This document shows positions 212 to 21,860 of a DNA stretch of 29,370 nucleotides, piece after piece. The notes below the pieces were generated by a model, which ran no database searches, was not told the DNA's origin, and was given only the letters and a program-made list of their open reading frames with translations. Position 1 is the stretch's first letter, and every line of letters starts with the position of its first letter. Where the stretch lies: positions 1 to 29,370 of the forward strand of contig JAGXAA010000002.1 of assembly GCA_018971765.1 (NCBI GenBank), given 5' to 3'. This stretch comes from Patescibacteria group bacterium. Lineage in GTDB: Bacteria > Patescibacteriota > Minisyncoccia > Phycocordibacterales > GWA1-40-21. A program made the position numbers and the translations under genes.

Positions 212-299
212 AATTACGAAACGCAAAAATTTAAGTCCTCGGGTCGCAAAACAAGGCGTTTTTGCTCAACCAGACTGTAAATTTTTGCGTTTCGTAATT
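212..299. repeat. Palindromic intergenic repeat family A, copy 1 (88 nt), terminal inverted repeats aattacgaaacg / cgtttcgtaatt
   Basis: Near-identical copies occur at 10197-10296, 20979-21078 and 21757-21860, all in the same orientation. The conserved core is gtcctcgggtcgcaaaa - variable loop - gtttttgctcaaccagac. Confidence 0.85.
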
Positions 300-355
300 C
301 AAAGAATTTATAAAAGATTAACCCATTCTTTTTTTGTGAAAGAGATTTTAATTTT

Positions 356-1045
356 ATGGAAAACATTAAAAATAAAATAACGATTCGCGCGATGGCGTTT
401 TGGGGAATATCCGCTTTGGTTTTAGGCGGAATGGTTTTTGGAATGGTCAAATTTGCTTCGCGCAACTCCTTGAGCGATAAGACTCCTTTGTCTTTAACCG
501 CTCCGATGACCGAAGGCGATTGGATAAGAGGAGACAAGAACGCAAAAGTCATAATTACCGAATACAGCGATTTTCAATGTCCCGCCTGCGGAGCTTATTA
601 CGGGGTCGTTAAACAACTGCATAAAGATTTCGGAGACAAGCTCGCGATAGTTTATAAGCATTTTCCGCTCCGACAAAGACACGCGAACGCGGAGGCGGCC
701 GCTTTGTCCGCCGAAGCCGCGGGCGGGCAAGGCAAGTTTTGGGAAATGCACGATATGCTTTTTGAAAATCAAAAAGATTGGGAAACAGCCGGCAATGCCC
801 GAGAAATTTTCATCGGATACGCGAAAGAATTGGGTTTGAACTCCGAACGATTCAAACAAGACTTAAATTCAAAAGAATTAGAGCAAAAAATCGAAATTGA
901 TTATCAAAGCGGGGTCAAAGCCGGAGTGAATCACACGCCGACTTTCTTCTTGAACGGCAAGGAAATTCAAAATCCGCGGAGCTACGAAGAATTCAGAAAT
1001 ATCGTAGACGAAGCGGAATCAAAAAAATCCCAAAGTTCATCTTAA
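356..1045 (+). CDS. DsbA-family thiol:disulfide oxidoreductase (thioredoxin fold), N-terminally membrane-anchored
   Basis: N-terminal TM/signal anchor. The active-site motif FQCPACGAYY (CPAC) is present, along with the cis-Pro loop HTPTFFLNG typical of DsbA/BdbD-like proteins. Confidence 0.8.
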   Translation: MENIKNKITIRAMAFWGISALVLGGMVFGMVKFASRNSLSDKTPLSLTAPMTEGDWIRGDKNAKVIITEYSDFQCPACGAYYGVVKQLHKDFGDKLAIVYKHFPLRQRHANAEAAALSAEAAGGQGKFWEMHDMLFENQKDWETAGNAREIFIGYAKELGLNSERFKQDLNSKELEQKIEIDYQSGVKAGVNHTPTFFLNGKEIQNPRSYEEFRNIVDEAESKKSQSSS

Positions 1046-1050
1046 AAATA

Positions 1051-2586
1051 ATGAACAAAAAGATCAAAAGATTTTTTACACTACGGCAAATGTCAGCGGT
1101 TTTTAAGCAAGCATTCAATTCTCCGCTTTATTGGATTATCATGATTGAAGCCGCTTTGGCTGTCGGTGTTTTGTATTGGCAACTTCTTTCAAAAGTAACC
1201 ACCGTCATAAATTTTTACTTGATTTATCGGAATGCGCCTCTCTATCTTTATTCTTACGCCGGTCTTGCTTTTTTGAGTATGATTCTTTTTGGTCTAAACG
1301 CTGCCATTCTTGTTTATTTGTGGCGAGAATCAAAGTCAGCGAGCGCCAAATATTCAGGCGGAAGCGTTTTGGGGGCTTTCTTCGGCTCTTTAGGTTCCGC
1401 TTGCCCGTCTTGCGGAGCGTTTCTTTTGTCTTTTCTTGGAGTTAGCGGCGGGGTGGCGATGCTGCCGTTTCGAGGACTTGAGATTCTTTTTGCAAGCGTT
1501 GTAATCTTAGGAGTATCGCTTTTATTGTCATTGAGAAGGCTTGCCGCCGCCGATTCCTGCGAATTATGCCCAATTCAACCGGATAAATCTGGAAACGCCG
1601 CAACGACAAATGCGAGGAAAAGAAGCGATCATAATCAAAAGCTTTACTACCAAGCGTCTCTTGTCGTCTTATTTCTAATAATCTTTTTTGTCTGGCCTCT
1701 TTTTCAAAATGAAATTATTTCCGCAAGTTCGGACGCAAAAAGCGGCCTTCTTCTCCAAAATAAGATTAATTTCGAACAAAAAAATGAAGCAGGGAGCAAA
1801 TTATACGTTGAAACTTTGGAAAAAGTTTTGCCGAAAGGCGGATTTGAGACAGGTCTTGCGCTTAGCGGCATTGTTCCGAAGATGGTTTCTTACGGGATAA
1901 TTGACGCGGACAAATTCAGAAAGCTTTATGGCAGACGCGGTTTGGACGAAGGCAGTCTTTCCATTCTGACTCGGAATTCAAAAGAGCCCCTCAAAATCAA
2001 CGAAAACAATGCCGGACTTCTTCTAAACATATTTTGGCCTTTGGGTATTTCCAATAAGACGAATTTCAATGAGAAAAGCCGGCTCAAAGGCGATTCTCTG
2101 TTTAACTTCGCTTCAACCGGCGGCTGGACATTGGGCAAGGAAGATAATGGCGGAAAATATTTCAACAGATACGAGATAATAAAATTGACTGAGGAGCAAG
2201 AAGAGGTTGTTCTCAAAGTCGCCGGAAACACTTATCGCCCTTGTTGCGGCAACTCGACTTTCTTTCAGGACTGCAATCACGGCTCGGCCCTGCTCGGCGC
2301 CATAGAACTCGGAGCTTCTCAAGGAATGTCCGAAGAAGAACTTTACAAGCTGGCGCTGAAACTGAATTCATTCTGGTTTCCCGATACTTATTTAGAAACC
2401 GCCCTTTATTTCAAAATAGCCAAAAGCGTCGATTGGGAAGATGTTGGCCCGAAAGAAATAATGAGTTTTGAATATTCCAGCGGTCCCGGGTGGGCGAAAA
2501 ATGTCGCAAAAACCTTTCAAGAAATTTTGAAAGATAACCCCGATCTTTTGCCGAAGACGACGCAAGGAGGCGGCTGCGGAGTCTGA
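1051..2586 (+). CDS. Polytopic membrane protein with two CxxC motifs (CPSC inside a Gly-rich TM segment; CELC after TM4) and a ~290 aa Cys-containing C-terminal soluble domain. Candidate DsbA redox partner of unknown family
   Basis: There are about five hydrophobic helices in the first ~210 aa, with the motifs GSACPSCGAF and DSCELCP. The C-terminal domain carries RPCCGNSTFFQDCNHG. The start lies 6 nt after the dsbA-like stop, consistent with operonic coupling. Confidence 0.6.
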   Translation: MNKKIKRFFTLRQMSAVFKQAFNSPLYWIIMIEAALAVGVLYWQLLSKVTTVINFYLIYRNAPLYLYSYAGLAFLSMILFGLNAAILVYLWRESKSASAKYSGGSVLGAFFGSLGSACPSCGAFLLSFLGVSGGVAMLPFRGLEILFASVVILGVSLLLSLRRLAAADSCELCPIQPDKSGNAATTNARKRSDHNQKLYYQASLVVLFLIIFFVWPLFQNEIISASSDAKSGLLLQNKINFEQKNEAGSKLYVETLEKVLPKGGFETGLALSGIVPKMVSYGIIDADKFRKLYGRRGLDEGSLSILTRNSKEPLKINENNAGLLLNIFWPLGISNKTNFNEKSRLKGDSLFNFASTGGWTLGKEDNGGKYFNRYEIIKLTEEQEEVVLKVAGNTYRPCCGNSTFFQDCNHGSALLGAIELGASQGMSEEELYKLALKLNSFWFPDTYLETALYFKIAKSVDWEDVGPKEIMSFEYSSGPGWAKNVAKTFQEILKDNPDLLPKTTQGGGCGV

Positions 2587-2641
2587 TGAATGGCGCCTTT
2601 TTAAATGTTGGGCGCCGAGTGTCCAATATTTGTTGATGACT

Positions 2642-2778
2642 TTGAATCGCGAAACTCCTGCTCGGCGCGTTATTTTAAGGGTACGGATTTTTCGAAGCTT
2701 GAAAAATCCTGAAGTTCTCGCGCCGCCGCGCTCGAAACCCTCTTAAAATAACGCGCCTCGACGAGTTTCGCGATTCAA
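2642..2778. repeat. Structured palindromic repeat family B, copy 1 (137 nt)
   Basis: Outer 16-bp inverted repeat ttgaatcgcgaaactc / gagtttcgcgattcaa. Second stem gcgcgttatttta / taaaataacgcgc. Central conserved hairpin ggatttttcgaagcttgaaaaatcc, plus a GC hairpin cgcgccgccgcg. The second copy is at 14487-14666. Confidence 0.8.
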
Positions 2779-2839
2779 AGTGATGAAAAGCTTGACTATT
2801 CGCATAGTAATCTGTTAGCATATCATTTGTCGTTTAAAA

Positions 2840-3067
2840 GTGATGGAAAATAAAAAAGCAAAGGATAAAGTGGCGGCAAGCGGAGTGATCATTGAGGCGT
2901 TCCCCAATGCTTTGTTCAAAGTCAAGCTTGAAAAAGAAGGAGCCGAGATACTCGCTTATCTTTCAGGGAAAATGAGAATGAATAGAATAAGAGTCTTGAT
3001 CGGCGACAAGATCATCGTCGAGCTTGATGAGTATGGCGGTAAAGGGAGGATTGTCAAAAGAATCTAG
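2840..3067 (+). CDS. infA: Translation initiation factor IF-1
   Basis: 75 aa, S1-like OB fold. The stretch GVIIEAFPNALFKVKLEKEGAEILAYLSGKMRMNRIRVLIGDKIIVEL is characteristic of IF-1. Confidence 0.92.
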   Translation: MMENKKAKDKVAASGVIIEAFPNALFKVKLEKEGAEILAYLSGKMRMNRIRVLIGDKIIVELDEYGGKGRIVKRI

Positions 3068-3145
3068 TTGGAAATTAGATAGCTTATAAAGCGCAAGAAG
3101 AAATTAATTGTTTAAACCCATAACCCGTAAAGCATAATTTAAAAA

Positions 3146-3262
3146 ATGAAAGTCAAATCATCAGTAAAAAAAATCTGTTCCAAATGCAAAGTCGTGCGCA
3201 GAAAAAAGTATGTGTATGTCGTCTGCGACGCGAATTTGAGACATAAACAGAGGCAGGGTTAA
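3146..3262 (+). CDS. rpmJ: 50S ribosomal protein L36
   Basis: Not in the ORF track because it is shorter than 60 aa. Hand translation of ATG 3146 to TAA 3260-3262 gives [38 protein letters not shown] (38 aa), the classic L36 zinc-ribbon sequence. It sits in the canonical infA-rpmJ-rpsM position. Confidence 0.9.
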
Positions 3263-3291
3263 TTTTATTAAAAAACGCAAATTATTCAAAT

Positions 3292-3672
3292 ATGAGAATT
3301 GCCGGCATAACAATACCTGAAAATAAAAGACTTGAGATAAGCCTTACCGCGGTGTACGGCATAGGAAGGTCTTTGGCGCGCAAAATATTGGACAAATCAA
3401 AGGTTGATTACGGAAAAAAGCCGAAAGATTTGACTCCCGAAGAAGAAAACGAGATTAGGAAAAATGTGGAAGCCCACAAAATAGAAGGCGACTTGAAAAG
3501 AGAAGTTTCTTCCAACATCAAGCGGCTTAAAGACATAAAATCATATCGCGGTTCAAGACACGCCAAGAGATTGCCGTCGCGGGGACAGAGGACGAAGACG
3601 AATTCAAGAACTCTGCGGGGCAATGTGAGAAAAACAATGGGCACAGGCAGGAAGAAAGAAGATAAAAAATAA
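3292..3672 (+). CDS. rpsM: 30S ribosomal protein S13
   Basis: MRIAGITIPENKRLEISLTAVYGIGRSLARKIL is the canonical S13 N-terminus. The C-terminus has the basic tail. Confidence 0.95.
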   Translation: MRIAGITIPENKRLEISLTAVYGIGRSLARKILDKSKVDYGKKPKDLTPEEENEIRKNVEAHKIEGDLKREVSSNIKRLKDIKSYRGSRHAKRLPSRGQRTKTNSRTLRGNVRKTMGTGRKKEDKK

Positions 3673-3684
3673 TTTATTTAATTT

Positions 3685-4119
3685 ATGGGTAAAAAGAGAA
3701 TTGTAAAAAAAGAAGAACAAGAATCCGCGGCTGAAGCGAAAAGTCAGGTTGAGGTTAAATCCGGCAAAAAAAAGCTGGAAGGGGGAATTCTTTTCGTTCA
3801 ATCAACCTACAACAACACGAAAGTCCTTCTTGCCGACCTTAAGGGCAACGCTCTGGCTTGGTCGTCGAGCGGCGCCCTTGGTTTCAAAGGGGCCAAGAAA
3901 GGAACGCCTTTCGCGGCGGCTAAAGTCGGCGAATTGGTTGGAGAGAAGGCGAGCAATATGGGAATAAAAGGAGTTGAAGTGGTCATTAAGGGAGTGGGGC
4001 AAGGAAGAGAGTCTTCCGTAAGAGGATTTCTGTCAAAGGGGATTGATCTTATGGGCATCAGAGACGTCACTCCCGTCCCTCACAACGGACCAAAACCAAA
4101 GAAACCAAGAAGAGTGTAA
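3685..4119 (+). CDS. rpsK: 30S ribosomal protein S11
   Basis: GILFVQSTYNNTKVLLADLKGNALAWSSSGALGFKGAKKGTPFAAA is an S11 signature. Confidence 0.95.
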   Translation: MGKKRIVKKEEQESAAEAKSQVEVKSGKKKLEGGILFVQSTYNNTKVLLADLKGNALAWSSSGALGFKGAKKGTPFAAAKVGELVGEKASNMGIKGVEVVIKGVGQGRESSVRGFLSKGIDLMGIRDVTPVPHNGPKPKKPRRV

Positions 4120-4162
4120 TTTATTTTTTTATTTGATTTTTCGATAATTTTTTAATTAAAAT

Positions 4163-4774
4163 ATGTTAATCGGACCAAGATACAAAAAGGCAAAAAAACT
4201 GGGAGCGCATATCTTTGATAAGACCCAGACGCAAAAATTCGCCCTCAGGCAGTCAATGGGCAAAAAGGATGACAAAAAAAGGGGAAGACCGAAAACCGAT
4301 TTCGGGCTTCAGCTTCTTGAAAAACAAAAAGCGAGGTTCACTTACGGCGTCAACGAAAGGCAATTTTCCAAGTATGTCAAAAGCATAATCAATAAAAAAG
4401 GAGCCAATTCTCCCGACACGCTCGTCCAGATTTTGGAATCAAGGCTTGATAACGTCGTTTATCGGCTGGGGCTTGCCAATTCGCGCCAGGCCGCGAGGCA
4501 GATGGTGTCGCACGGCCATATCACGATAAACGGAAGAAGAAATAACATACCTTCGTATGGTGTCATTGTCGGGGATAAGATAGGCGTGAGCCAAAGGAGC
4601 TTGAAGAATAAGCTTTTTGCCGATTTGGAAAACAAAATCAAAGAGCATAATTATCCTTCTTGGCTTAAGTATGACGCGGCCAAAAAATCTTACGATGTCC
4701 AAGGAATGCCTAAGCTCGCAAACACGGAAATAATGTTTAACGCGGCTTCGGTCATTCAGTTTTACAGCAGATAG
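4163..4774 (+). CDS. rpsD: 30S ribosomal protein S4
   Basis: ARFTYGVNERQF...LESRLDNVVYRLGLANSRQAARQMVSHGHITINGRR is the S4 S4-domain signature. Confidence 0.95.
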   Translation: MLIGPRYKKAKKLGAHIFDKTQTQKFALRQSMGKKDDKKRGRPKTDFGLQLLEKQKARFTYGVNERQFSKYVKSIINKKGANSPDTLVQILESRLDNVVYRLGLANSRQAARQMVSHGHITINGRRNNIPSYGVIVGDKIGVSQRSLKNKLFADLENKIKEHNYPSWLKYDAAKKSYDVQGMPKLANTEIMFNAASVIQFYSR

Positions 4775-4856
4775 TCCGCAAATGCTTGCATAAATCAAGA
4801 AAATGATACATAATTGTTTTTTATCGAATCAATTTAAAAATAATTAAAAGAAACAT

Positions 4857-5819
4857 ATGATTGATCATAACGACATAATTTTACCTTCAAAACCCAAAGT
4901 AATTCAAGAGAAAGATTCAAGCGGCGTCTATGAAATAGACGGATTATATCCGGGCTACGGTCATACGCTCGGGAATTCGCTCCGAAGAATCATATTGTTG
5001 TCGCTCAAGGGAGCGGCGATAACCTCAGTGAAGATAAAGGGGGTAAGTCATGAATTTTCATCAATAAGCGGCGTCAAAGAAGATGTCATAAATATCATTC
5101 TGAATTTGAAAAACATAAGAGTGAAGATGCTCACGGACGAGCCGCAGATTCTGAACCTGAAGGTTAAAGGCGTCAAGGACATCAAAGCGGGGGATATTGA
5201 CGCCCCCGGCCAGGTTGAAGTTTTGAATAAAGATTTATATGTAGCCGGCATTACCGAAAAAAATACCGAATTGTCGATTGAGATGCGGGTGGAAAAAGGA
5301 CTCGGCTATGTGCCCAAGGAAGTCCTTCAGAAAGACAGGGTTGAGGTGGGCGCGATTGTCCTTGACGCTTCATTCACTCCTATCCGCCGAGTGAATTATG
5401 AAGTTGAAAATATGCGAGTCGGCGACAGGACGGATTTCAATCGTTTGAGAATATTCATAGAGACCGACGGCACGATTTCTCCGAAAGAAGCTTTGGAGTC
5501 GTCCGTTCAGATTATGATTGCCCAGCTCAAGGCTATTGTCGGATTTGAAGAGAAAGAAAAGCCTGAGAGGGAAAAATCCATAGAGGCGAAAGAGCCGGAA
5601 GAAAAAAAGGAGGCGGATGTGGAATTCATGAAAACCAGAATAGAGTCCGTTGATCTTTCCACAAGGACGGTCAAAGCCCTTTCGAATGCGAACATAAGAA
5701 CCGTTGGCGGTCTCGCCAGGAAGAAAGAAAAAGATCTTCTCGAGATAGAAGGGCTCGGAACCAAAGGAATCCAAGAGATTAAAAAAACTTTATCCAATTT
5801 CGGCATAACGCTAAATTAA
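4857..5819 (+). CDS. rpoA: DNA-directed RNA polymerase subunit alpha
   Basis: 320 aa. [34 protein letters not shown] is the alpha N-terminal domain signature. It follows rpsD in the canonical alpha-operon order. Confidence 0.93.
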   Translation: [320 protein letters not shown]

Positions 5820-5886
5820 TAAGATAAAGCGATCTCTGGTTTTTTAATAAAATGAATTTTGGAGATAATAATCGGCAATATGAAAT

Positions 5887-6234
5887 ATGAAACATCATAA
5901 ATCAATGAGAACATTGGGAAGAGAAAGAAACCAGAGGAGAGCGCTCCTCAAGTCTCTCGCTTCTTCTTTGATAAAGAGCAAGAAAATCAAAACGACTTTG
6001 GCGAAAGCCAGAGAGCTTCGGCCGTTTATGGACAAGTTCGTCACTCTTTCCAAGAAAGGTGGCTTGAATTCAACAAGATTGATCTCGTCCAAGCTCGGGA
6101 AAGACAGCGCTATGATACTTGCGAAAGAAATCTCGTTGAATTACAAAGACAGGAAAGGCGGTTATACCAGAATAATCAAATTAAACCCCAGAAAGAGCGA
6201 CGGAGCTTTGATGGCGCAGATTGAATTCGTTTAA
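5887..6234 (+). CDS. rplQ: 50S ribosomal protein L17
   Basis: MKHHKSMRTLGRERNQRRALLKSLASSLIKSKKIKTTLAKARELRPFMDK is the L17 signature. It follows rpoA. Confidence 0.93.
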   Translation: MKHHKSMRTLGRERNQRRALLKSLASSLIKSKKIKTTLAKARELRPFMDKFVTLSKKGGLNSTRLISSKLGKDSAMILAKEISLNYKDRKGGYTRIIKLNPRKSDGALMAQIEFV

Positions 6235-6249
6235 TCCGGCGAAAGAATA

Positions 6250-6615
6250 TTGAATTTCAAAATTATGAAAAATATCATAGAAATAGACGCAAAAGGAAAG
6301 AAATTGGGCAGGGTGGCGAGCCAAGCCGCCGTTATTCTAATGGGCAAGAACTTGGTCAATCAAGCGAGGAATATCGTTCCGGAAGTTTCAGTCAGCATCT
6401 CAAATGTTTCCAAATTACAAATTGATTCCAAAAAGAAAAAAGAAAAAGATTACGCCTCTTTCTCCGGTTATCCGGGCGGACTCAAGAAAGAAAGCATGGA
6501 AAAGCTGATTGGCAGAAAGGGTTTCAGCGAGATTTTGAAACTGGCGATTTACGGGATGTTGCCGTCCAATAAATTGAGAGCGAAGATGATGAATAATTTA
6601 ACGATAATCGAATAA
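6250..6615 (+). CDS. rplM: 50S ribosomal protein L13
   Basis: IIEIDAKGKKLGRVASQAAVILMGK is an L13 signature. The true start may be the internal ATG at 6265. Confidence 0.9.
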   Translation: MNFKIMKNIIEIDAKGKKLGRVASQAAVILMGKNLVNQARNIVPEVSVSISNVSKLQIDSKKKKEKDYASFSGYPGGLKKESMEKLIGRKGFSEILKLAIYGMLPSNKLRAKMMNNLTIIE

Positions 6616-6618
6616 AAT

Positions 6619-7068
6619 ATGACGCCGATTAAAAATGAAGACAATAAAATGGAAAAAGATTCAAAAATGGAAAGAAAGAAGACCTACATAGAGGCCGTCG
6701 GAAGAAGGAAGACGGCCAGCGCCAGAGTCAGAATCGTTGAAAGCGCGAAAAACAATTTTAATGTTAATGGCAAAAGCTTGGAAGATTATTTCAAAGTAAA
6801 AGAGTTGACGGAGATTGCGAGTGAATCTTTGCTCAAATCCAAAACACCCGCGAATTTCAGCGTTTCCGCGAAAATAAAAGGAGGAGGAATAAGCGCTCAA
6901 GCTGAAGCTTTTAGACTCGGCATTGCCAGAGCGCTTGTGATCTACGATAATGAATTAAGAAAGAAATTGAAGGGCGCGGGATTTTTGAAGAGAGACCCGA
7001 GAGCGAAAGAAAGAAGGAAATTCGGCCTCAAAAAAGCCCGAAAAGCCCCGCAATGGTCAAAGAGATAA
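6619..7068 (+). CDS. rpsI: 30S ribosomal protein S9
   Basis: YIEAVGRRKTASARVRIV and the C-terminal ...KKARKAPQWSKR are S9 signatures. The gene follows rplM, the conserved rplM-rpsI pair. Confidence 0.93.
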   Translation: MTPIKNEDNKMEKDSKMERKKTYIEAVGRRKTASARVRIVESAKNNFNVNGKSLEDYFKVKELTEIASESLLKSKTPANFSVSAKIKGGGISAQAEAFRLGIARALVIYDNELRKKLKGAGFLKRDPRAKERRKFGLKKARKAPQWSKR

Positions 7069-7182
7069 TATTTTGCAAGATATTTTAGGTCTTTGGATCA
7101 TGGGAAGTTATGTAAAATATTTAAATTCTCCTCAATTTCCTGTCCGCTTGTCGCGGGGTTCTCGGTTTTTCTGAAAACACAT

Positions 7183-7208
7183 TGACTTTCCATTGGAATG
7201 GTATATTC
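7183..7208 (+). promoter_or_regulatory. Candidate sigma-70-type promoter in the S9/holB gap: TTGACT -35 and an extended -10 tgGTATATT
   Basis: ttgactttccattggaatggtatattct. The -35 hexamer is at 7183-7188. A TGn-TATATT element lies at 7199-7207, or TATTCT with a 16-nt spacer. It sits ~115 nt upstream of a small ORF at 7323. Confidence 0.35.
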
Positions 7209-7322
7209 TATTTTTAGACGCGCGTTTTATTAATTCTGAGAAAATGCAAAGGAGGCGGTGTTCCCGTCGTTCGTTGATTTTTATTATCTTGTTTTTATTT
7301 TTAAAATAGAGAGAGAGGGAAA

Positions 7323-7496
7323 ATGGCTAGGAGAAAAAAAGAAGAAAATAAAATAATGAGATCGGTTAAGAAGTCGGAAAGGAAATGTTTTAAAATTTGC
7401 TATTCCGATTCCAAGCAGCATTTTCGACCGCATGTAATTTTTAATTCTTTTGGTTTGAAGGAGGACACCGCATTACCGGCCATTGCTCAGAGGTAA
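7323..7496 (+). CDS. Small basic hypothetical protein (57 aa), apparently a stand-alone transcription unit
   Basis: Hand-translated: MARRKKEENKIMRSVKKSERKCFKICYSDSKQHFRPHVIFNSFGLKEDTALPAIAQR. It is below the ORF-track size cutoff. A GAGGG RBS lies 4 nt upstream. A candidate promoter is at 7183 and a strong intrinsic terminator at 7521. I see no match to any ribosomal protein I know. Confidence 0.35.
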   Translation: MARRKKEENKIMRSVKKSERKCFKICYSDSKQHFRPHVIFNSFGLKEDTALPAIAQR

Positions 7497-7520
7497 TTTA
7501 ATTATCCGCGATAAAATATT

Positions 7521-7557
7521 AGAGACTTCAGTTTGTATGACTGAAGTCTTTTTTATT
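7521..7557 (+). terminator. Rho-independent terminator
   Basis: agacttcag-ttgtat-ctgaagtct (perfect 9-bp stem) followed by TTTTTTATT. Confidence 0.7.
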
Positions 7558-7628
7558 ATTCTCGCAGAGAAGGGGTGGCTTTATTCATTTATTTGCTCTT
7601 TAAGCGGAAAGTGGTCTATAATTTTCAT

Positions 7629-10165: not shown

Positions 10166-10196
10166 CGTTTGGAAGTATCTTTTCCAAATCACTTTG

Positions 10197-10296
10197 ATTA
10201 CGAAACGGAAAAATTTAAGTCCTCGGGTCGCAAAAACTCTTTGTCTTTCAAGGTGTTTTTGCTCAACCAGACTGTAAATTTTTCCGCTTCGTAATT
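10197..10296. repeat. Repeat family A, copy 2 (100 nt)
   Basis: gattacgaaacggaaaaatttaagtcctcgggtcgcaaaa...gtttttgctcaaccagactgtaaatttttccgcttcgtaatt. Intergenic between rseP and a secreted-protein gene. Confidence 0.85.
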
Positions 10297-10416
10297 CACA
10301 GAAATCATGGAAAAATTATTTTCTCTTCTTAAACTTGCCGTCTGAAATTCTTCGGCCTTTTTATTTTGACCAGCGTATTTTTTTCCTGTATCATTTCGGC
10401 TATGAGGCAAATTTGA

Positions 10417-14486: not shown

Positions 14487-14666
14487 TTGAATCGCGAAAC
14501 TCTTTCTCGGTATGTCTTTTTTAGGGTACGGATTTTTTGAAGCTTAAAAAATCCTGAAGTTCTCGTCCCTCACCAGTTTTGATTTTAGAAATTTCCATTT
14601 CCAAAACTGGTGAGGGACTCGAAACCCCCTAAAAAAGACATACCTTCGACGAGTTTCGCAATGCAA
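14487..14666. repeat. Structured palindromic repeat family B, copy 2 (180 nt)
   Basis: Shares the outer inverted repeats and the central ggattttttgaagcttaaaaaatcc hairpin with copy 1. The second stem is compensated (gtatgtctttttta / taaaaaagacatac). The variable hairpin is a perfect 17-bp stem gtccctcaccagttttg / caaaactggtgagggac. Confidence 0.8.
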
Positions 14667-14683
14667 GGTGATTTTATAAAAAA

Positions 14684-14953
14684 ATGATGAAAAGAATTAT
14701 CATCGACGCGCTGTTATTCTTGGCGATTTTATTATTGCCGCCGCTTGCTCCCCTTATTGTGGCTTTTTTTCTGTCGTATTATTTTGAATCTTTCTACGAA
14801 ATAATATTCGTCGGAATTTTCATCGACTCTCTTTACGGCAGGTCTCTTTCTGGCTTTTATGATTTTTCTCATCTTGCGACTTTCATTTCCGCGGTTTTGT
14901 TCGTCTTATCGATTTTTGCGAAAAAGCGCCTGAAATTTCATTCAGACAGATGA
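14684..14953 (+). CDS. Small 3-TM membrane protein in the MreD position (putative MreD-like)
   Basis: 89 aa, hydrophobic. It sits between mreC and PBP2 as mreD does in canonical operons and overlaps the PBP2 start. The assignment rests on position only. Confidence 0.35.
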   Translation: MMKRIIIDALLFLAILLLPPLAPLIVAFFLSYYFESFYEIIFVGIFIDSLYGRSLSGFYDFSHLATFISAVLFVLSIFAKKRLKFHSDR

Positions 14954-16680
14954 TTATGTTAAACGGGAAAATCAAAAAAATATTTGGCTGGAGTCGGCGG
15001 TCTCGGCGGCTGATGAAATCAAACAGAGACATCGATCCGGATGAGATTTTTCTTGACTCGAGCAATTTGCCGAAATTCGACACCCATCAGTTTGAAGGAA
15101 GAATCGTCAGTTCGATTTCCAAAAGAAGCATCACTTTTTTGGCTGTCTTTTTCGCATTCATATTCGCCTTGTTTTCCGTGAAAATCTGGAATCTGCAGGT
15201 CGTCAAAGGTTCGGAATATTCGGCGCGGAGCGAGAATAATCGCTTGCGCCACACGACAATATTTCCTTTGCGCGGCGTAATTTATGACAGAAACGGCAAA
15301 GAGCTCGCGTGGAACACTCTTGGCGAGGGCAAAGAATTCGCTCTAAGAAAATACCTCGATCTTCCCGGACTCTCCCATATCTTGGGATACGTCAAATATC
15401 CGGCGAAAGATTCTTCCGGATTTTATTACAATGAAAATTATGTGGGCAAAACGGGCGTTGAAAAATTTTTTAACGATGAACTTTCCGGAGAAAGCGGTCT
15501 CAAGATAATAGAGACGAACGCTTTGGGAAAAATTCAATCGGAAAGCGTCATTCGTCCGCCCAAAAACGGAAATAACGTCAATCTATCGATCGATGCGGAA
15601 GTGCAGAATAAATTGCATGAATCGATATCGAACTTGGCAAAACAGGCGGGATTTTCGGGCGGAGCCGGGGTGATTATGGACGCGCGAAGCGGAGAAGTGC
15701 TGGCTCTGTCAAGCTATCCGGAATACAGCTCGCAGATTCTTTCGGACGGGACGAATATCGGAGCGATAAAAAAATATGTGGAAGACAAAAATAAACCTTT
15801 TTTGAACAGAGTCACGGATGGTCTTTACACTCCCGGTTCCATCATAAAACCTTTCGTCGCTTTGGGGGCGCTCACTGAAAAAATCATTTCTCCTTCAGAT
15901 TTGATATTTAGCGGCGGGTCAATCAAAGTGCCTAACATCTATAATCCAAACAAGCCCTCGGTCTTCACGGAAGTGAAGGCTCACGGCTATGTCGATATGA
16001 GGAAAGCCCTGGCCGAATCGTCAAATGTTTATTTTTATGAAATAGGCGGAGGGTATGAAAATCAGAAGGGGCTTGGAATTTCCAATATTGAAAAGTACGT
16101 GAGATTGTTCGGTTTCGGAAGCGATTTTCCGGAAGGATTTTTCTCCGGCAAATCCGGAACCGTTCCCAATCCCGAATGGAAAAAAGAAAATTTCACCGAT
16201 CAGGAATGGAGGGTGGGAGACACTTACAACACTTCAATAGGGCAATACGGTTTCCAAATAACTCCGATTCAAGCCGTTCGAGCCGTCTCCGCGATAGCGA
16301 ACGGAGGCAAACTCGTGGACACTTCAATCATTTTAGATTCTCCCGACGGCGGCGCGAAATCAATTGACATCAAGAGCGAGGATTTTCAAGTCGTAAGGGA
16401 GGGCATGAGGGGAGCGGTGCAATTTGGCACGGCTGTCGGACTGAATATTCCTCAAGTCGAAGTGGCGGCGAAGACGGGAACGGCGGAGCTCGGCTCTGAT
16501 AAAAAATTCGTGAATTCATGGGTGATCGGTTTCTTCCCTTACAAAAATCCAAGATACGCTTTTGCCGTGCTTATGGAACACGGTCCGAGCGCCAACCTAA
16601 TCGGAGGCCTGTATGTGATGAGAGGAGTTTTGGATTGGATGAGCGCCAACGCTCCCCAGTATTTGCAGTCTGCCGATTGA
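14950..16680 (+). CDS. mrdA: Penicillin-binding protein 2 (class B transpeptidase, elongasome)
   Basis: N-terminal TM, dimerisation domain, and the transpeptidase motifs SIIK (SxxK), SSN and KTGT. It lies immediately downstream of mreBC(D). Confidence 0.88.
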   Translation: MIMLNGKIKKIFGWSRRSRRLMKSNRDIDPDEIFLDSSNLPKFDTHQFEGRIVSSISKRSITFLAVFFAFIFALFSVKIWNLQVVKGSEYSARSENNRLRHTTIFPLRGVIYDRNGKELAWNTLGEGKEFALRKYLDLPGLSHILGYVKYPAKDSSGFYYNENYVGKTGVEKFFNDELSGESGLKIIETNALGKIQSESVIRPPKNGNNVNLSIDAEVQNKLHESISNLAKQAGFSGGAGVIMDARSGEVLALSSYPEYSSQILSDGTNIGAIKKYVEDKNKPFLNRVTDGLYTPGSIIKPFVALGALTEKIISPSDLIFSGGSIKVPNIYNPNKPSVFTEVKAHGYVDMRKALAESSNVYFYEIGGGYENQKGLGISNIEKYVRLFGFGSDFPEGFFSGKSGTVPNPEWKKENFTDQEWRVGDTYNTSIGQYGFQITPIQAVRAVSAIANGGKLVDTSIILDSPDGGAKSIDIKSEDFQVVREGMRGAVQFGTAVGLNIPQVEVAAKTGTAELGSDKKFVNSWVIGFFPYKNPRYAFAVLMEHGPSANLIGGLYVMRGVLDWMSANAPQYLQSAD

Positions 16681-16712
16681 TATTTTATCTCAATTGATGA
16701 TAAAATTTTCAA

Positions 16713-17069
16713 ATGAAAAAATTTCGCAAGAGTTTCAAAGCGGCGACCAATGGCATAAAGGAGACTCTGATCTTTGAGAGGAATTTTAAAATAATGCTGG
16801 TTATGGCTTTGATGATAGTAGGCTTGATGTTTTATTTTCCCACTTCTCGAACCGAAAAAGCGATTCTCTCCACCGCTATTTTTGCGGTGCTCACTTTGGA
16901 AATGGTAAACATCGTCATCGAGCGGCTTCTCGATTTCGTTCATCCCGGGCATCATGAGGAAGTGAGAATCATAAAAGATCTGATCGCCGCCATAGTTTTA
17001 ATCGCCAGTTTTGGAGCGGCGGTAATCGGACTCATAGTATTTTGGCCTTACATTACTGGGGTAAAATGA
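16713..17069 (+). CDS. dgkA: Diacylglycerol kinase / undecaprenol kinase (prokaryotic DgkA family)
   Basis: 118 aa, 3 TM. ERNFKIM...LEMVNIVIERLLD...KDLIAAIVL matches the DgkA E..N.AIE motif and spacing. Confidence 0.75.
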   Translation: MKKFRKSFKAATNGIKETLIFERNFKIMLVMALMIVGLMFYFPTSRTEKAILSTAIFAVLTLEMVNIVIERLLDFVHPGHHEEVRIIKDLIAAIVLIASFGAAVIGLIVFWPYITGVK

Positions 17070-17070
17070 A

Positions 17071-17120
17071 AACCAGAATCAAATTTTAGTCTTTAAACTA
17101 AAATCGATTCTGGTTTTTGA
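17071..17120. terminator. Bidirectional intrinsic terminator between convergent dgkA (+) and the HAD hydrolase (-)
   Basis: aaccagaatcaaattttagt-cttt-aaactaaaatcgattctggtt, a ~19-bp stem flanked by A-run and T-run. Confidence 0.7.
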
Positions 17121-17133
17121 ACCGTCCGCTATT

Positions 17134-17673
17134 TTAAGCAGGCAAATCGATAGGGTCCATCGCCTGCAGTCCAAAGTTTTTGGCGAGCGCTCTTGCTTCA
17201 GCAAGATCATCGACAAAAACTACATTATTTTTTTTCAAACCATTCTTCTTAACAAAACAAAGAAGGTTTTCAAACACTTCTTTGTCCGGTTTGGTTTTTT
17301 GCGACACAAAAACCTCCTTTTCGGAATAAATAAAAAAATTCAAGAGACTTTTTCGCGTTTGAACAAATGCAAGATTTTTAATGTCAATACCCAACACCTC
17401 CAGATATTGACATAAGGAAAACAAACTTCTGTCGGTTAATATTCCGATGGGAAAATTATTTTCCTTCACAAGATTGTGAATGTTTTTGTGAGCGACAACT
17501 TTCTTTATTTTAAAAAGAAAGCCGAAGAAATCTACAATCTCGCTTAACGCCAAACATATATTTGGCGGGCGAGACAGACCGATCTTTTTAAAAATGCGCC
17601 TGCAAAGTTTTTCGATTCTGCTTGACGGGATTATTGTCCCGTCAAAATCAAGAATGAATAGGACTGTCCTCAT
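17134..17673 (-). CDS. HAD-superfamily hydrolase
   Basis: N-terminal motif I ILDFDGTI (DxDGT) and a C-terminal VVFVDD motif IV-like segment. Confidence 0.6.
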   Translation of the reverse strand: MRTVLFILDFDGTIIPSSRIEKLCRRIFKKIGLSRPPNICLALSEIVDFFGFLFKIKKVVAHKNIHNLVKENNFPIGILTDRSLFSLCQYLEVLGIDIKNLAFVQTRKSLLNFFIYSEKEVFVSQKTKPDKEVFENLLCFVKKNGLKKNNVVFVDDLAEARALAKNFGLQAMDPIDLPA

Positions 17674-17755
17674 TCACCGACTCCTTTCTTTTCAAAAAAC
17701 ACGAAATAAAAAACTATCTTGCGACAGATTACACCTTTTTGGTCAAAAGTCAAGG

Positions 17756-17784
17756 TTGCCCTCCTCTTTAAACGGCTATATAAT
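17756..17784 (+). promoter_or_regulatory. Candidate sigma-70 promoter TTGCCC-17-TATAAT for the methyltransferase/SBP operon
   Basis: ttgccctcctctttaaacggctatataat ends ~50 nt upstream of ATG 17836. It lies in the divergent intergenic region. Confidence 0.45.
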
Positions 17785-17835
17785 ATGCGCAATAAATTTA
17801 TTATTGCTCATTAATTCAATTCACTTCAAATTTTT

Positions 17836-18363
17836 ATGTTCTCCGATCCGGCAAAAAATATCGAACAATTCGGACTTTCTAAAGGGATGTTCGTGGCTGA
17901 TTTTGGCGCCGGTTCGGGATTTTACGCGATGTCCGCCGCCAAAGCGGTGGGGGATAAAGGAAGAATCTACGCGATTGATGTCCAAAAAGATTTGCTTCAG
18001 AGAATAAAAAATCAAGCCAATACGGAACGAATGCCGAATATCGAGATAATTTGGGGCGATGTGGAGAAAATAGGAGGAACGAAGCTAAAAGACGATTCGA
18101 TTGACGCCGTGATAATCGCCAACATTCTCTTTCAAGCGGCGGAGAAAAATAATATTTGCCTTGAAGCGACAAGAATTTTAAAAAGAGGCGGAAGAGCGCT
18201 TGTGGTCGATTGGCGCGACTCTTTCGGCGGACTGGGGCCAAAACAAAGCGATGTTTTTTCGTCGTCCGTCGCGAAAGAAATTTTTCAGAAAAATAATTTC
18301 GCGCTCGAAAGGGAATTCAACGCCGGCGAACATCATTACGGGTTAATTTTTAAAAAACAATGA
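17836..18363 (+). CDS. Class I SAM-dependent methyltransferase
   Basis: Motif I VADFGAGSGFYAMSAA, motif II IYAIDVQ, and motif post-II VIIANILFQ. Confidence 0.7.
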   Translation: MFSDPAKNIEQFGLSKGMFVADFGAGSGFYAMSAAKAVGDKGRIYAIDVQKDLLQRIKNQANTERMPNIEIIWGDVEKIGGTKLKDDSIDAVIIANILFQAAEKNNICLEATRILKRGGRALVVDWRDSFGGLGPKQSDVFSSSVAKEIFQKNNFALEREFNAGEHHYGLIFKKQ

Positions 18364-19649
18364 GCAATTTTAGAATAGCGCTTACCGCAATATTCGCGAT
18401 TTTCATCGTAGTCGGCGTTATTATGTTTTCTCTTTCTCGCGGAGGTTCAAGCGGCGCGGGGGAGGAAATAACCCTCTGGGGGACTATTCCGGAATCGCTC
18501 TTCGTCAAATACTTGGACAGCGTTAATTTAAACAGAAAAAACAAAGTATTGATCAAATATGTCGCGAAAGAAGCCAGTTCTTTTGACGCTGAATTTGTCG
18601 AGGCCTTGGCGAGCGGCACGGGGCCGGACGCCATTCTCCTTCCTCAAGACTCGATTCTTCGCCATAAAGACAAGATATATCCGATTCCTTACGGCACTCT
18701 TTCCGAGCGCGCTTTCAAAGACACTTTCATCCAAGAAGCGGAGCTTTATCTCTTTCCTGAGGGTATTATCGCTCTTCCTTTCACGATTGACCCTTTGGTG
18801 ATGTATTGGAACAGAGACATATTCACCGATGCCCTTATGGCGCAAGCGCCGTCTTATTGGGATGAATTTCCTTCTCTTGTCGGAAAAATCACAAAAGTCG
18901 ACAGCCAGCTGAACATCTTAAGAAGCGCGGCGGCATTGGGCGAATTCAGAAATATCGCAAGCGCCAAGGAAATAATTTCAATGCTCATATTTCAAGCGGG
19001 CAATCCCATCGTCAAAAACGATAACGGCAAGACGACAGCCGTTTTGAGCGACAGGATGGATTCGGCCATACCTCCTTCGGAAGCGGCGCTTCGCTTTTAC
19101 GCCGAGTTTTCAAATCCGTCAAAGACTTCTTACTCATGGAACAGGGCGCTCCCTCTTTCCACCTCTTATTTCTTAAGCGGAGATTTGGCGGTTTACTTCG
19201 GTTTCGCCTCGGAATTCGACGGAATTAAAATAAAAAATCCCAATCTTAATTTTGATGTCGCCGTTGTTCCGCAGAGAAGGGGCGCGAATACGAAAACCAC
19301 TTTTGGCGCGATGCAAGGCTTTGCTCTAGTCAAATCTTCCAAAAAATTATCGTCCGCTTGGAGCGCGATATCGACTCTCGCCAATAAGGACAATCTTTCG
19401 CTGTGGACAAAAACATCGGGATTGCCTCCCGTTCGGAGAGACTTGCTAAGCGCCGGTTCGGCTGACCCCGTCGGCTCAGTTTTTTACGCCTCCGCGATAA
19501 TATCCAAAGGGTGGCTTGATCCGAACAAGGAAGAGACTAATGCCGTATTTCAAAATATGGTAGAATCGATAATATCGGGAAAATCAATGCTTGACGAGGC
19601 TGTTCATCAAGCCGATCTTGAATTGCAAAGTATTCTGCCTCAAAAATAA
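18360..19649 (+). CDS. Membrane-anchored extracellular solute-binding protein (ABC-type SBP family 1-like), orphan
   Basis: N-terminal TM anchor. ITLWGTIPE...PDAILLPQD...LVMYWNRDIF resembles sugar-type SBPs. The start overlaps the methyltransferase stop (ATGA). No permease or ATPase is in the window. Confidence 0.5.
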   Translation: MSNFRIALTAIFAIFIVVGVIMFSLSRGGSSGAGEEITLWGTIPESLFVKYLDSVNLNRKNKVLIKYVAKEASSFDAEFVEALASGTGPDAILLPQDSILRHKDKIYPIPYGTLSERAFKDTFIQEAELYLFPEGIIALPFTIDPLVMYWNRDIFTDALMAQAPSYWDEFPSLVGKITKVDSQLNILRSAAALGEFRNIASAKEIISMLIFQAGNPIVKNDNGKTTAVLSDRMDSAIPPSEAALRFYAEFSNPSKTSYSWNRALPLSTSYFLSGDLAVYFGFASEFDGIKIKNPNLNFDVAVVPQRRGANTKTTFGAMQGFALVKSSKKLSSAWSAISTLANKDNLSLWTKTSGLPPVRRDLLSAGSADPVGSVFYASAIISKGWLDPNKEETNAVFQNMVESIISGKSMLDEAVHQADLELQSILPQK

Positions 19650-19657
19650 AAAATTTT

Positions 19658-20296
19658 ATGAAATGTTTAAAATTTCCAATAATGACGGCATTTTTGTTTT
19701 TTTTGAGCGTTGCGTTTCCTCTTTCAAGCTATGCCGCTTATTCCGGCAGCCCCAATCCGATAAGTCCCGGTTTCCAGCTTGTGCCCTGCGACGGCGTTTA
19801 TGTTCCCTGCGATTTCAACGCGCTGATGGAGCTCGTGAACAGAATCATCAGCTTCATTTTTTACCTTTCAATCCCTCTCGCCGCCATATCATTCTCTTAC
19901 GCCGGTTATCTTTATGTGAGCGCCGCGGGAAGCGAAGACAAGATCAAAGAAGCGCACAAAATTTTCGGGAAAGTTATGTGGGGGTTTATTTTGATGTCTT
20001 CAGCGTGGCTTATCGTCTATAGCATAACCAGCGTTCTTCTCGGCAACGATTTCAAAAATTCCAAAAGCAATCTTTTGAGAAATAACGGCGTTCAGAGCGG
20101 CAGTGGAAGCGGTAGCGGCGTTAATGGCGGAAGCGGAGGCGAAGCTGTCGGCAACGGATACAATAGCAGTGTCAGAGTTGGGATTATTAATAGAGGCGCA
20201 ACAGATGCGAAAAATCTCCAGTTTGATTTTGGAGATCAGAATAGCAGCGCGATTACGGATGTGAAAGACCTTCCGTTTAAATTTGGCAATCAGTAG
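19658..20296 (+). CDS. Exported two-helix-hairpin protein, paralog A (TrbC/VirB2-pilin-like topology) with Cys pair and Gly/Ser-rich C-terminal tail
   Basis: Signal peptide ...PLSSYA. Cys pair LVPCDGVYVPCD. The hairpin is ISFSYAGYLYVSAAGSEDKIKEAHKIFGKVMWGFILMSSAWLIV, then the tail SGSGSGSGVNGGSGGEAVGNG. Confidence 0.45.
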   Translation: MKCLKFPIMTAFLFFLSVAFPLSSYAAYSGSPNPISPGFQLVPCDGVYVPCDFNALMELVNRIISFIFYLSIPLAAISFSYAGYLYVSAAGSEDKIKEAHKIFGKVMWGFILMSSAWLIVYSITSVLLGNDFKNSKSNLLRNNGVQSGSGSGSGVNGGSGGEAVGNGYNSSVRVGIINRGATDAKNLQFDFGDQNSSAITDVKDLPFKFGNQ

Positions 20297-20320
20297 TCTT
20301 AAAATTTTAAAATCATTTTT

Positions 20321-20749
20321 ATGAAAAAATTAAATAAAAGGAAAATAGCGGTGATTACGGGGGCGGCGATTTTGTTATTTTTCGCACTGACTTTTCAACC
20401 TATCGTTTCGTTTGCCGCTCTAGACACTGAAGGCGGCAATAACGACAGTGGAAGAAGCGGCAACATCATCACGCTCAGAAATCCCCTCGGCAATAATATC
20501 AACAATCTCCCCGCATTCATCTATATGATCCTTGACATAGTCTTTCGCATCGGAGCGATTATGGCGGTCTTGGTCTTAATGTATGTCGGCTTTATGTTCG
20601 TAAGCGCGAGAGGCGACACGGAAAAGCTTGAGACGGCAAGAAGAGCTTTTCTTTGGACCGTCATCGGCATAGCTCTGCTTCTAGGAGGCAGGCTTATCGC
20701 GAGCATTATAGGCAACACCATAAGTCAAGTTTCCACGGGGATATACTAG
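20321..20749 (+). CDS. Exported two-helix-hairpin protein, paralog B (TrbC/VirB2-pilin-like)
   Basis: Signal peptide ...IVSFA. Hairpin LVLMYVGFMFVSARGDTEKLETARRAFLWTVIGIALLLGGRLIASIIGN. Confidence 0.45.
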   Translation: MKKLNKRKIAVITGAAILLFFALTFQPIVSFAALDTEGGNNDSGRSGNIITLRNPLGNNINNLPAFIYMILDIVFRIGAIMAVLVLMYVGFMFVSARGDTEKLETARRAFLWTVIGIALLLGGRLIASIIGNTISQVSTGIY

Positions 20750-20946
20750 AACCCATTTCAAAAATAATGAATAATCTAAACACCCAAATTTCGAGGAAAA
20801 AACAGAGGATGAGGAAGGAGGCGCAACTTTCGTTGCGACGACTGACGAAACTCTGTTTTTTGCCGAAATTTGGGCGTTTGGATATTCAAGCATTTTCAGT
20901 ATAGCTTTATAAGCGTTTATTTTTGAGATGGGTTCTAATCAAAATT

Positions 20947-21735
20947 ATGAAGAAAATAACTAATCTTAATGGATTATCAATTACGAAACGGGAAAATTCA
21001 GGTCCTCGGGTCGCAAAATCTCTTTGTTTCTTAAATGTTTTTGCTCAACCAGATCGTAAATTTTTCCGTTTCGTAATTAAAAGTAATAGATTAAAATTAT
21101 CGGCGATTATCCTTATATTTCTGATTATGCCGGCAATCACTTTCGCTTTTACGCGCGGTCCGGACGGTTATAATTATTACGACTATCAATCAAACTATCC
21201 TATTGGCGGCCTAATATTCGGCGGAGGCAGTTTCGGCGGCAGCGGTCTATTTTGTTCCGGCGGTTACTATCCCACTTTCTGCAGCGTTATTGAATTTTTC
21301 CTAGGTCTTATAGGAAAATCAATTCCGATTCTTATTTCCATCTCCATTATAGTTTTCGTCTGGGGCGTATTCAGATATGTTATGTACGAAGGAGAAGACA
21401 GGCAAAAAAGCAGAGATGTGATGATGTACGGGATCATCGGTCTGTTTGTAATGGTGTCGGTCTGGGGTTTGGTCGCGCTGGTATATAACACTTTCGGCCT
21501 AAATAATACCAACAACTCCATCTATTATTACGGCAGTGGCGGATATGGCATCGGAAGCGGCGGGGGAGGCGGATTTAGCGGCAGCGGGAGCGGATTGGGA
21601 AAGGCGGCTTTTGACGGCAGTAGCTCTGGCAACGGCGGCGCAAATGACAACACTTCCGGAAGTCCCTTTGGTTTGCCGCCAATCAAGCTCGCTCCCAGCG
21701 ATTTGTCCTTACCGCTTAACACTTCCATAAAATAA
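20947..21735 (+). CDS. Exported two-helix-hairpin protein, paralog C (TrbC/VirB2-pilin-like) with Cys pair and long Gly-rich tail. Repeat A copy 3 lies in-frame in its 5' end
   Basis: Cys pair FCSGGYYPTFC. Hairpin ISIIVFVWGVFRYVMYEGEDRQKSRDVMMYGIIGLFVMVSVWGLVALV. Tail YYYGSGGYGIGSGGGGGFSGSGSG. ATG 20947 (MKKIT...) resembles the paralog starts, but the frame runs through the 100-nt repeat. Alternatively the gene starts downstream at a non-ATG codon. The start is uncertain. Confidence 0.4.
   Translation: MKKITNLNGLSITKRENSGPRVAKSLCFLNVFAQPDRKFFRFVIKSNRLKLSAIILIFLIMPAITFAFTRGPDGYNYYDYQSNYPIGGLIFGGGSFGGSGLFCSGGYYPTFCSVIEFFLGLIGKSIPILISISIIVFVWGVFRYVMYEGEDRQKSRDVMMYGIIGLFVMVSVWGLVALVYNTFGLNNTNNSIYYYGSGGYGIGSGGGGGFSGSGSGLGKAAFDGSSSGNGGANDNTSGSPFGLPPIKLAPSDLSLPLNTSIK
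20979..21078. repeat. Repeat family A, copy 3 (100 nt), embedded in the open frame of paralog C
   Basis: aattacgaaacgggaaaattcaggtcctcgggtcgcaaaa...gtttttgctcaaccagatcgtaaatttttccgtttcgtaatt. Confidence 0.85.
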
Positions 21736-21756
21736 ACATAATAACTTATGATTCCG

Positions 21757-21860
21757 AATTACGAAACGCAAAATTTAGGTCCTCGGGTCGCAAAAACTCT
21801 TTAATGTTATCACAAGGTGTTTTTGCTCAACCAGACCATAAATTTTCGCGTTTCGTAATT
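21757..21860. repeat. Repeat family A, copy 4 (104 nt)
   Basis: A perfect 16-bp terminal inverted repeat ccgaattacgaaacgc / gcgtttcgtaattcgg with the same conserved core. It sits between paralogs C and D. Confidence 0.85.

Follow-up and report, generated by a model that had tools for sequence, protein, structure and literature searches.

Probable miniature hairpin-forming insertion elements in a Patescibacteria chromosome, one of them in frame in a pilin-like gene, and their apparently undescribed Patescibacteria-wide superfamily

According to PMC10969869, which summarises Ogata et al. (2000, 2002), Rickettsia palindromic elements (RPEs) are palindromic repeats of ~100–150 bp that occupy intergenic spacers and also, in frame, housekeeping genes unrelated to one another. 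The repeats considered here, designated family A, were found in a stretch of 29,370 nucleotides from a Patescibacteria group bacterium (assembly GCA_018971765.1, contig JAGXAA010000002.1, positions 1 to 29,370; hereafter the window), a housekeeping part of the chromosome with genes of ribosomal proteins, rpoA, frr, an M50 protease, mreBC, a PBP2-like transpeptidase and a cluster of pilin-like paralogs of the family PF18895. Four copies of the element are present in the window, and these are very probably insertions of a non-autonomous, hairpin-forming transposable element of the miniature inverted-repeat class (MITE), ~110 bp long, into AT-rich DNA, with duplication of ~7 bp of the target. The copies apparently form a new family of MITEs, with one copy inserted in frame as RPEs are, within an apparently undescribed Patescibacteria-wide superfamily of hairpins; no description of these elements was found in the literature, the coverage of which was incomplete, and a prior description is possible. 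The superfamily is more than a routine repeat mainly because its constant centre and variable arms reverse the pattern usual for MITEs.

The exact core strings GTCCTCGGGTCGCAAAA and TTTTTGCTCAACCAGA occur four times each on the + strand, at the places named in the original prediction, whose claim of four copies in the same orientation is thus borne out; further matches to these strings with up to three mismatches are absent from the window (chance expectation 0.06 and 0.69, respectively). Searched with a covariance model built from 74 diverse copies, the four copies score 64–74 bits and the next best match in the window and the 10 kb upstream of it scores 12.8 bits, a fifth copy being absent from both regions. 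The shared orientation is unremarkable because all surrounding genes are on the + strand. Long hairpins, nearly perfect, are formed by all four copies on both strands (dG −33 to −46 kcal/mol, z-scores −6 to −9.4), and the alignment of the copies with their flanks has a mean column identity of 75%. The window elements are 98–115 nt long, the modal length among 36 distinct copies of family A being 110 nt, and have no capacity to code for a transposase. A length of ~90–105 nt and terminal inverted repeats of 12–16 bp had been proposed originally; the true ends lie 6 nt further out on each side, and the inverted repeat comprises nearly the whole element, with arms of ~30 bp or more.

These ends are bounded by target-site duplications (TSDs). 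Flanks were compared for 39 copies of family A, i.e., the subfamily of the window copies with the outer arm GAATTACGAAAYGCAAAAATTTAGG, anchored on ATTACGAAA...TTTCGTAAT, and left and right flanks of different copies served as the control. An exact direct repeat of 6–8 nt (mode 7), located exactly 6 nt outside both anchors, was found in 26 of the 39 copies, versus 5.4% of the mismatched flank pairs reaching a repeat of at least 6 nt. The direct repeats are AT-rich, have a different sequence in each copy and are present at all four window copies, so that the search for TSDs suggested with the original prediction gave a positive result. Since the TSDs fix them, the ends of family A lie at approximately CTATGAATTACG...CGTAATTCAAGA.

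Near-identical copies of family A were found in several other genomes, and in several metagenome-assembled genomes (MAGs) copies lie at contig ends (loci L007, at both ends, L041, L073, L082 and L097). The repeat breaks MAG assemblies, and copy numbers estimated from MAGs are too low. The earlier doubt about a recently active MITE, raised by the differences among the window copies, is not upheld in view of these near-identical, partly contig-breaking copies. About 20 additional copies, lower-scoring and AT-enriched, were detected in other loci by the covariance-model search and are, to judge by their sequences, decaying elements. Related genomes differ in the presence of the element: four copies are present in 29 kb here and dozens in other MAGs, and orthologues of the pilin-like paralog C lack copy 3. 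An ERIC/REP-like MITE, one of the candidates listed originally, is thus supported by TSDs at a fixed offset, by copies across genomes, by decay and by an insertion verified with orthologues.

This insertion is copy 3. The open reading frame (ORF) starting from the ATG at 20947 continues through copy 3 into the pilin-like paralog C, and the same protein of 262 amino acids (aa) is annotated by NCBI. The element (110 nt) and one 7-nt duplication make up 117 nt, i.e., 39 added codons, in frame. Removal of the element and one TSD from paralog C gives the N-terminus MKKITNLNGLKLSAIILIFLIMPAITFA, a normal signal peptide matching those of the orthologues; the latter, 55–67% identical, start with MKKNIKLGKLGLF...FILPIFTFAF, without the 39 residues. 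In the reading frame of copy 3, only 3 of the 36 distinct family-A elements are free of stops, and the second codon, TGA, originating from the terminal CTATGA, is found in 25 of the 36 and is replaced by TCA in copy 3. Because of this, copy 3 is a rare in-frame survivor rather than an element upstream of a gene, and it would be read as 39 extra residues, as the intact ORF suggests. Accordingly, the original statement that each copy precedes a gene for an exported protein is retained in part: three copies precede genes with hydrophobic N-termini, and copy 3 lies inside such an ORF. The annotation is corrected in that one pilin-like gene holds a mobile insertion of 39 codons.

Five tandem PF18895 (T4SS_pilin-like) paralogs are located at 19658–22633 of the window, and two copies are inserted here, one inside paralog C and the other between paralogs C and D. 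Redundancy of the paralogs may be the reason why the intragenic copy 3 is tolerated. In two pilin-C orthologues, P0018 and P0021, the N-terminal position of copy 3 is occupied by another insertion (...CHSRAGENPDSITKNLDSRLRGNDRG...), which looks like a translated palindromic repeat of another family.

The elements of the window are part of a much wider group. The scan for the core, CCTCGGGTCGC-N(10–40)-GCTCAACCAGA, in one genome per species returned at least 108 stretches, nearly all of them in Patescibacteria MAGs labelled as Parcubacteria, Campbellbacteria, Nomurabacteria, Paceibacteria/Paceibacterota, Patescibacteria and Saccharibacteria; the core search of viral contigs, plasmids and phages gave no hits. 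Over 125 instances, the core GUCCUCGGGUCGC...GCUCAACCAGAC is constant and the outer and inner helices are wholly different among subfamilies, sometimes even between copies of one genome, yet complementarity is always kept. In the seed alignment of 74 sequences, which comprises many subfamilies, the asymmetric centre of 24 nt, 5' GUC[CUC]GG[GUC]GC ... GC[UCAA]CC[A]GAC 3', is invariant. Members of the other subfamilies are mostly found inside housekeeping genes, where they would be translated in frame, while the subfamily of the window is mostly intergenic and usually contains an in-frame stop. A-runs and T-runs flank the stem in some of the other subfamilies.

The outer stems of subfamilies other than A (L004, L011, L012, L019, L057, L098) contain recurrent conserved pyrimidine–pyrimidine internal loops, namely, a 2x2 loop UC/UC beside GGUC/GACC and, ~20 bp further out, a 3x3 loop UUC/UUC (CTTCG in both arms). 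Since these loops recur, the arms are not simple perfect palindromes. Copying of the second arm from the first by self-priming was rejected, since mismatched loops are conserved in the arms of several subfamilies. Derivation of the arms from the target was also rejected: the gene of MnmA contains the complete 96-nt hairpin as an addition to the expected spacing, and the arms of family A are shared among genomes. On inspection by eye, resemblance to a K-turn, a bulge-helix-bulge motif, attC (with a single RYYYAAC-like box), an IHF site and a CRISPR repeat was dropped, one defining feature or another being missing each time. Beyond Patescibacteria, a genuine element with paired arms was found in an AT-rich stretch of a 268-kb contig of a MAG labelled Burkholderiales (L021, JAMPXW010000002.1), which is probably a misbinned Patescibacteria contig; the arms are unpaired in the matches from Mycobacteriaceae, Vibrio and Demequina, which are apparently due to chance.

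Long ORFs enclose about 44 of 122 instances, and 29 of these are sense-oriented and share one frame, which reads ...VLGSP...AQPD.... The host genes are those of DNA polymerase I (PolA; L025, L043, L045, L053, L109), the CCA-adding/HD enzyme, with the insertion between HDIGKP and FYGHE (L019, L056, L069, L075), MnmA, with the insertion after ATGHY (L032, L106), and a DHH/RecJ-like protein. Intactness of the ORFs suggests that the intragenic copies are read through as peptide. An origin of these cases from spurious frames in rRNA or another large RNA was rejected: at the gathering threshold of Rfam, nothing besides tRNAs was detected in 17 loci, and the ORFs are real genes of PolA and the CCA-adding enzyme.

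The linker of PolA was analysed in 120 orthologues (P0121–P0240) with 77–100% identity, in 117 of which it could be anchored between the 5'-3' exonuclease and LQEASIALW. The full sense core is present in 21 of the 117 linkers, a sense core with part of it deleted (VLGSPGPQTPARPFENSL) in 20, the reverse complement of the core (GLVEP...ATRGPEK) in 17, a different palindrome (HSHSVLEGQ...SEDSSEH) in 19 and three other kinds in 11; the remaining 29 are unclassified or contain no recognisable insert. At the DNA level, the exact reverse complement of the core is found in L111, within a hairpin whose arms differ (dG −67), the core of L112 is degenerate in a hairpin that is still strong, and the palindrome of L113 is unrelated. 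At least seven different translated palindromes occupy this linker among orthologues that are 10–23% diverged (L025, L111, L112 and L113 on DNA). The linker is thus a hotspot of insertion or replacement with turnover, in which both orientations would be translatable and the core can decay in place. We infer that the core is kept because copies need it to propagate, and not for use by the host.

The pairing of the arms is well supported. In the model-based alignment of 133 copies, 91.7% of the cells are paired versus 63.7% in shuffled alignments, and 759 cells are changed on both sides versus 239 in shuffles, none of the 500 shuffles reaching 759; when the partners are slid by 1–3 columns, pairing falls to 32–48%. 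Related copies are not independent, and the p-values therefore overstate the case. Both helices flanking the core covary through all four Watson–Crick pair types, and G.U or A.C makes up only 1–3% of the cells, with sense-strand G.U at ~1%. In family A, 17 G.U and 20 A.C were counted among ~1,150 cells, and an independent comparison of arm against arm gave 22 and 24, respectively. Covariation alone is non-discriminating, as the arms of a DNA palindrome would give the same pattern. G.U on the transcribed strand is normally tolerated in a helix under selection as RNA; the pairing seen here, almost wholly Watson–Crick, is more in keeping with a DNA palindrome and its two arms than with an RNA helix. 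The palindrome is favoured because wobble is very rare and the asymmetry of mismatches favours the strand opposite to the usual mRNA. The paired difference in the outer stem pointed out originally, C:G in copies 1 and 4 and G:C in copies 2 and 3, is real; it is one among many paired, almost exclusively Watson–Crick changes of the arms that define sub-lineages, a pattern expected of a DNA palindrome more than of RNA.

The coordinates of the copies, their duplications and cores and the host gene of copy 3 are listed in the table below. Copy 1 is inserted directly past the stop of the upstream ORF (9..200), 51 nt ahead of the dsbA-like start, and its left TSD overlaps the final base of the TAA stop. 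An ORF of 70 aa on the minus strand, at 10198–10410 of the window (19843–20055 of L001), was called as a gene directly over copy 2; it has no Pfam hit and is probably a gene-calling artefact of the repeat. Apart from the elements, a sub-threshold L20_leader-like match (28.1 bits versus the gathering score of 58.7, E 0.096) was detected at 26335–26432 (+); its main part is a hairpin resembling a terminator, GUGUGGAUAAU...GUUAUCCACAC, with a U-run behind it, and it overlaps the start of the ORF 26367–26930.

Table. Family-A copies in the window, with target-site duplications, asymmetric cores and the host gene of copy 3 (CM, covariance model; PG, peptidoglycan)
Feature	Position	Strand	Description
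Family-A copy 1	207..304	+	98 nt, central loop shortened; core strings exact; CM 72.2 bits; ends from fixed-offset TSD analysis
Copy 1 TSD AATTTAT	left 200..206, right 305-311	+	exact 7-nt direct repeat, offset 6/6
Copy 1 asymmetric core	5' half GTCCTCGGGTCGC 235-247; 3' half GCTCAACCAGAC 264-275	+	invariant in 74-sequence seed alignment; flanking helices covary
Family-A copy 2	10192..10301	+	110 nt; CM 73.9 bits; between rseP-like M50 protease gene and PG-binding/Kre9 gene
Copy 2 TSD AAATCA	10186-10191 and 10302-10307	+	fixed-offset TSD analysis
Copy 2 asymmetric core	10219-10272	+	
Pilin-like paralog C	20947..21735	+	PF18895 T4SS_pilin Pfam hit; identical to NCBI protein KGJ58_00790; host gene of copy 3
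Family-A copy 3	20974..21083	+	110 nt; CM 69.3 bits; in frame after codon 9 of pilin-like paralog C
Copy 3 TSD TAATGGA / TAATAGA	20967-20973 / 21084-21090	+	6/7 match, read from flanks
Copy 3 asymmetric core	21002-21054	+	
Family-A copy 4	21751..21865	+	115 nt, longer central loop; CM 64.4-64.6 bits; between pilin-like paralogs C and D
Copy 4 TSD TTATG	21746-21750 and 21866-21870	+	fixed-offset TSD analysis
Copy 4 asymmetric core	21779-21836	+	

The original prediction offered a cis-regulatory RNA or a palindrome to which the regulator of a secretome regulon would bind, and the position of three window copies ahead of genes with hydrophobic N-termini and of the fourth within such a gene, the shared orientation and the paired C:G/G:C change are all in agreement with it. 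Such a role is nevertheless highly improbable, since hydrophobic N-termini are encoded by 10 of the 22 co-oriented genes downstream of family A, the share among all ORFs of these loci being 34% (p=0.35), and by 7 of 19 downstream of copies outside the window, so that the proposed enrichment upstream of signal-peptide genes is absent. In other genomes, the genes following family A are of the ordinary housekeeping kind, among them those of enolase, S13, S2, peptidyl-tRNA hydrolase (Pth) and RNase III, and members of a second subfamily are located between tuf and rpsJ and upstream of the genes nusA, rplU and eno. In addition, copy 3 lies within a coding sequence, the best promoter-like sites for the downstream genes of the window fall between the element and the gene, and the TSDs point to arrival by insertion. 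No consistent promoter or terminator was found within the elements, and the terminator scan calls no site at any of the four copies, which agrees with the original remark that no T-run follows them and that they are not intrinsic terminators. Rfam at E<=1 gave nothing for the window but a plant microRNA match that reflects the long hairpin only. A structured RNA module functional for the host, for example a hairpin for mRNA stabilisation or processing that an RNA-binding protein or RNase present throughout Patescibacteria would recognise, either spread on mobile hairpins or co-opted later, would explain the invariance of the 24-nt asymmetric internal loop between helices covarying through all Watson–Crick types, the further conserved loops UC/UC and UUC/UUC of several subfamilies, the bias towards the sense orientation and the A- and T-runs around some stems, similar to bidirectional terminators. 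It is considered unlikely, as wobble is limited to 1–3% and the mismatch asymmetry favours the strand opposite to mRNA, the core occurs in both orientations and is degenerate at one orthologous PolA site, and copies of family A decay and have no common gene context. Movement of a single-stranded DNA hairpin by an HUH/Y1 enzyme of the REP-RAYT or IS200/IS605-PATE type, which would read the folded imperfect central hairpin, is consistent with the REP-like size of the conserved bulged hairpin, with arms that need only to pair, with Watson–Crick-dominated pairing with strand-asymmetric mismatches and with an orientation bias relative to gene, and hence replication, direction. We consider it quite unlikely, given that such systems make no TSD and family A has a clear one of ~7 bp; the GTAG/CGTC head typical of REPs is not visible in the aligned copies, and no RAYT or TnpA gene was seen beside any copy in loci that were not systematically annotated.

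Insertion of a MITE with duplication of the target, which is preferred here, relies on insertion signatures, intragenic in-frame copies, covariation and turnover, all of which are shown. The element would integrate into AT-rich DNA and give rise to a duplication of ~7 bp of the target. Since the element encodes no protein, the mobilising enzyme would be encoded elsewhere, and the duplication points to mobilisation in trans by a staggered-cut transposase of the DDE type. Copies would persist where harm is small, in short intergenic spacers and, rarely in the case of family A, in coding regions when in frame. The subfamily of the window belongs to the larger Patescibacteria-wide group of hairpins, whose arms differ by subfamily and are always complementary, and the centre would be conserved for propagation rather than for the host.

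Several observations weigh against this explanation. The centre is invariant and the arms are variable, whereas ordinary MITEs conserve their termini, and a simple model of terminal repeats and transposase leaves this pattern unexplained. TSDs were shown for family A alone; in the other subfamilies, whose boundaries are uncertain, no clear TSDs were seen by eye. An empty-site allele of copy 2 was not found in the metagenome search. In the ~0.85 Mb of fetched loci, there was no sign of an autonomous partner or of a transposase whose ends match, and every case obtained in the search for a partner via unpaired termini and solitary half-cores was a contig end or a decayed copy. Orientation has a modest bias, copies being on the sense strand of co-directional neighbouring genes in 19 cases versus 7 (p=0.03). 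In the older subfamilies, A.C outnumbers G.U among the sense-strand mismatches of the stem (55 versus 22 in the alignment and 56 versus 14 in the arm comparison), and some strand-specific force thus acts, candidates being selection for a weaker hairpin in mRNA, a single-stranded intermediate formed from the opposite strand and replication bias. Of the signs of a neutral MITE named with the original prediction, a lack of linkage to gene function was found, whereas orientation is biased and covariation is strong.

As a tentative possibility, the invariant 24-nt centre may be a recognition module of an undescribed Patescibacteria-specific propagation system, in which a protein would read the folded centre of the hairpin, as single-stranded DNA or RNA, and not terminal repeats, with any complementary arms being carried along. 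Such a system would account for the constant core and varying arms, the replacement and flipping of hairpins at one site and the strand-asymmetric mismatches; if it exists, the elements have remodelled loops and linkers of core proteins across the radiation.

For the window, a tempting regulatory story is removed. More broadly, the tiny and supposedly streamlined genomes of Patescibacteria carry phylum-wide selfish hairpins inside essential genes (PolA, CCA-adding enzyme, MnmA, RecJ-like), and the oddity that made RPEs famous is now found in an unrelated lineage. The elements break MAG assemblies, inflate the diversity of protein families and create hypervariable linkers. The invariant centre is a concrete handle toward the mobilising enzyme, and the superfamily deserves a proper census.

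Among described systems, RPEs behave similarly. Both are short palindromes in many copies, intergenic as well as in frame as extra peptide segments, in small reduced genomes, and the mobilising enzyme is not known for either. In contrast to RPEs of Alphaproteobacteria, the elements described here are found in the unrelated Patescibacteria and have one invariant 24-nt centre with varying arms, and the subfamily of the window is mostly intergenic and usually carries an in-frame stop. As the hosts are unrelated and no sequence relationship to the families RPE-1 to RPE-10 is expected, RPEs are treated as an analogue, and the elements are not assigned to them. Structured cis-regulatory RNAs and intrinsic terminators share the long stable hairpin, the covarying stems and, in some subfamilies, A- and T-runs, but differ in that the elements have no Rfam match, almost no G.U, no conserved context, no U-run in the window and signatures of insertion. 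REP/BIME sequences with RAYT are similar in their bulged imperfect palindromes, high copy number and conservation in the hairpin rather than in terminal repeats; they are 20–40 nt long and strictly extragenic, with a GTAG/CGTC head and no TSD, while the elements of Patescibacteria are ~100–160 nt long and often intragenic, with TSDs in family A. Correia/NEMIS elements of Neisseria, ERIC/IRU of enterobacteria and RUP/BOX of pneumococcus resemble them in size, in long inverted repeats folding as hairpins, in TSDs, in being non-coding and present in many copies, and in preferential survival in intergenic spacers. Unlike these classical MITEs, the elements have an AT-rich TSD of ~7 bp, versus TA of Correia elements, have no known partner IS, are most conserved in the centre and are spread across many classes of a phylum-level radiation.

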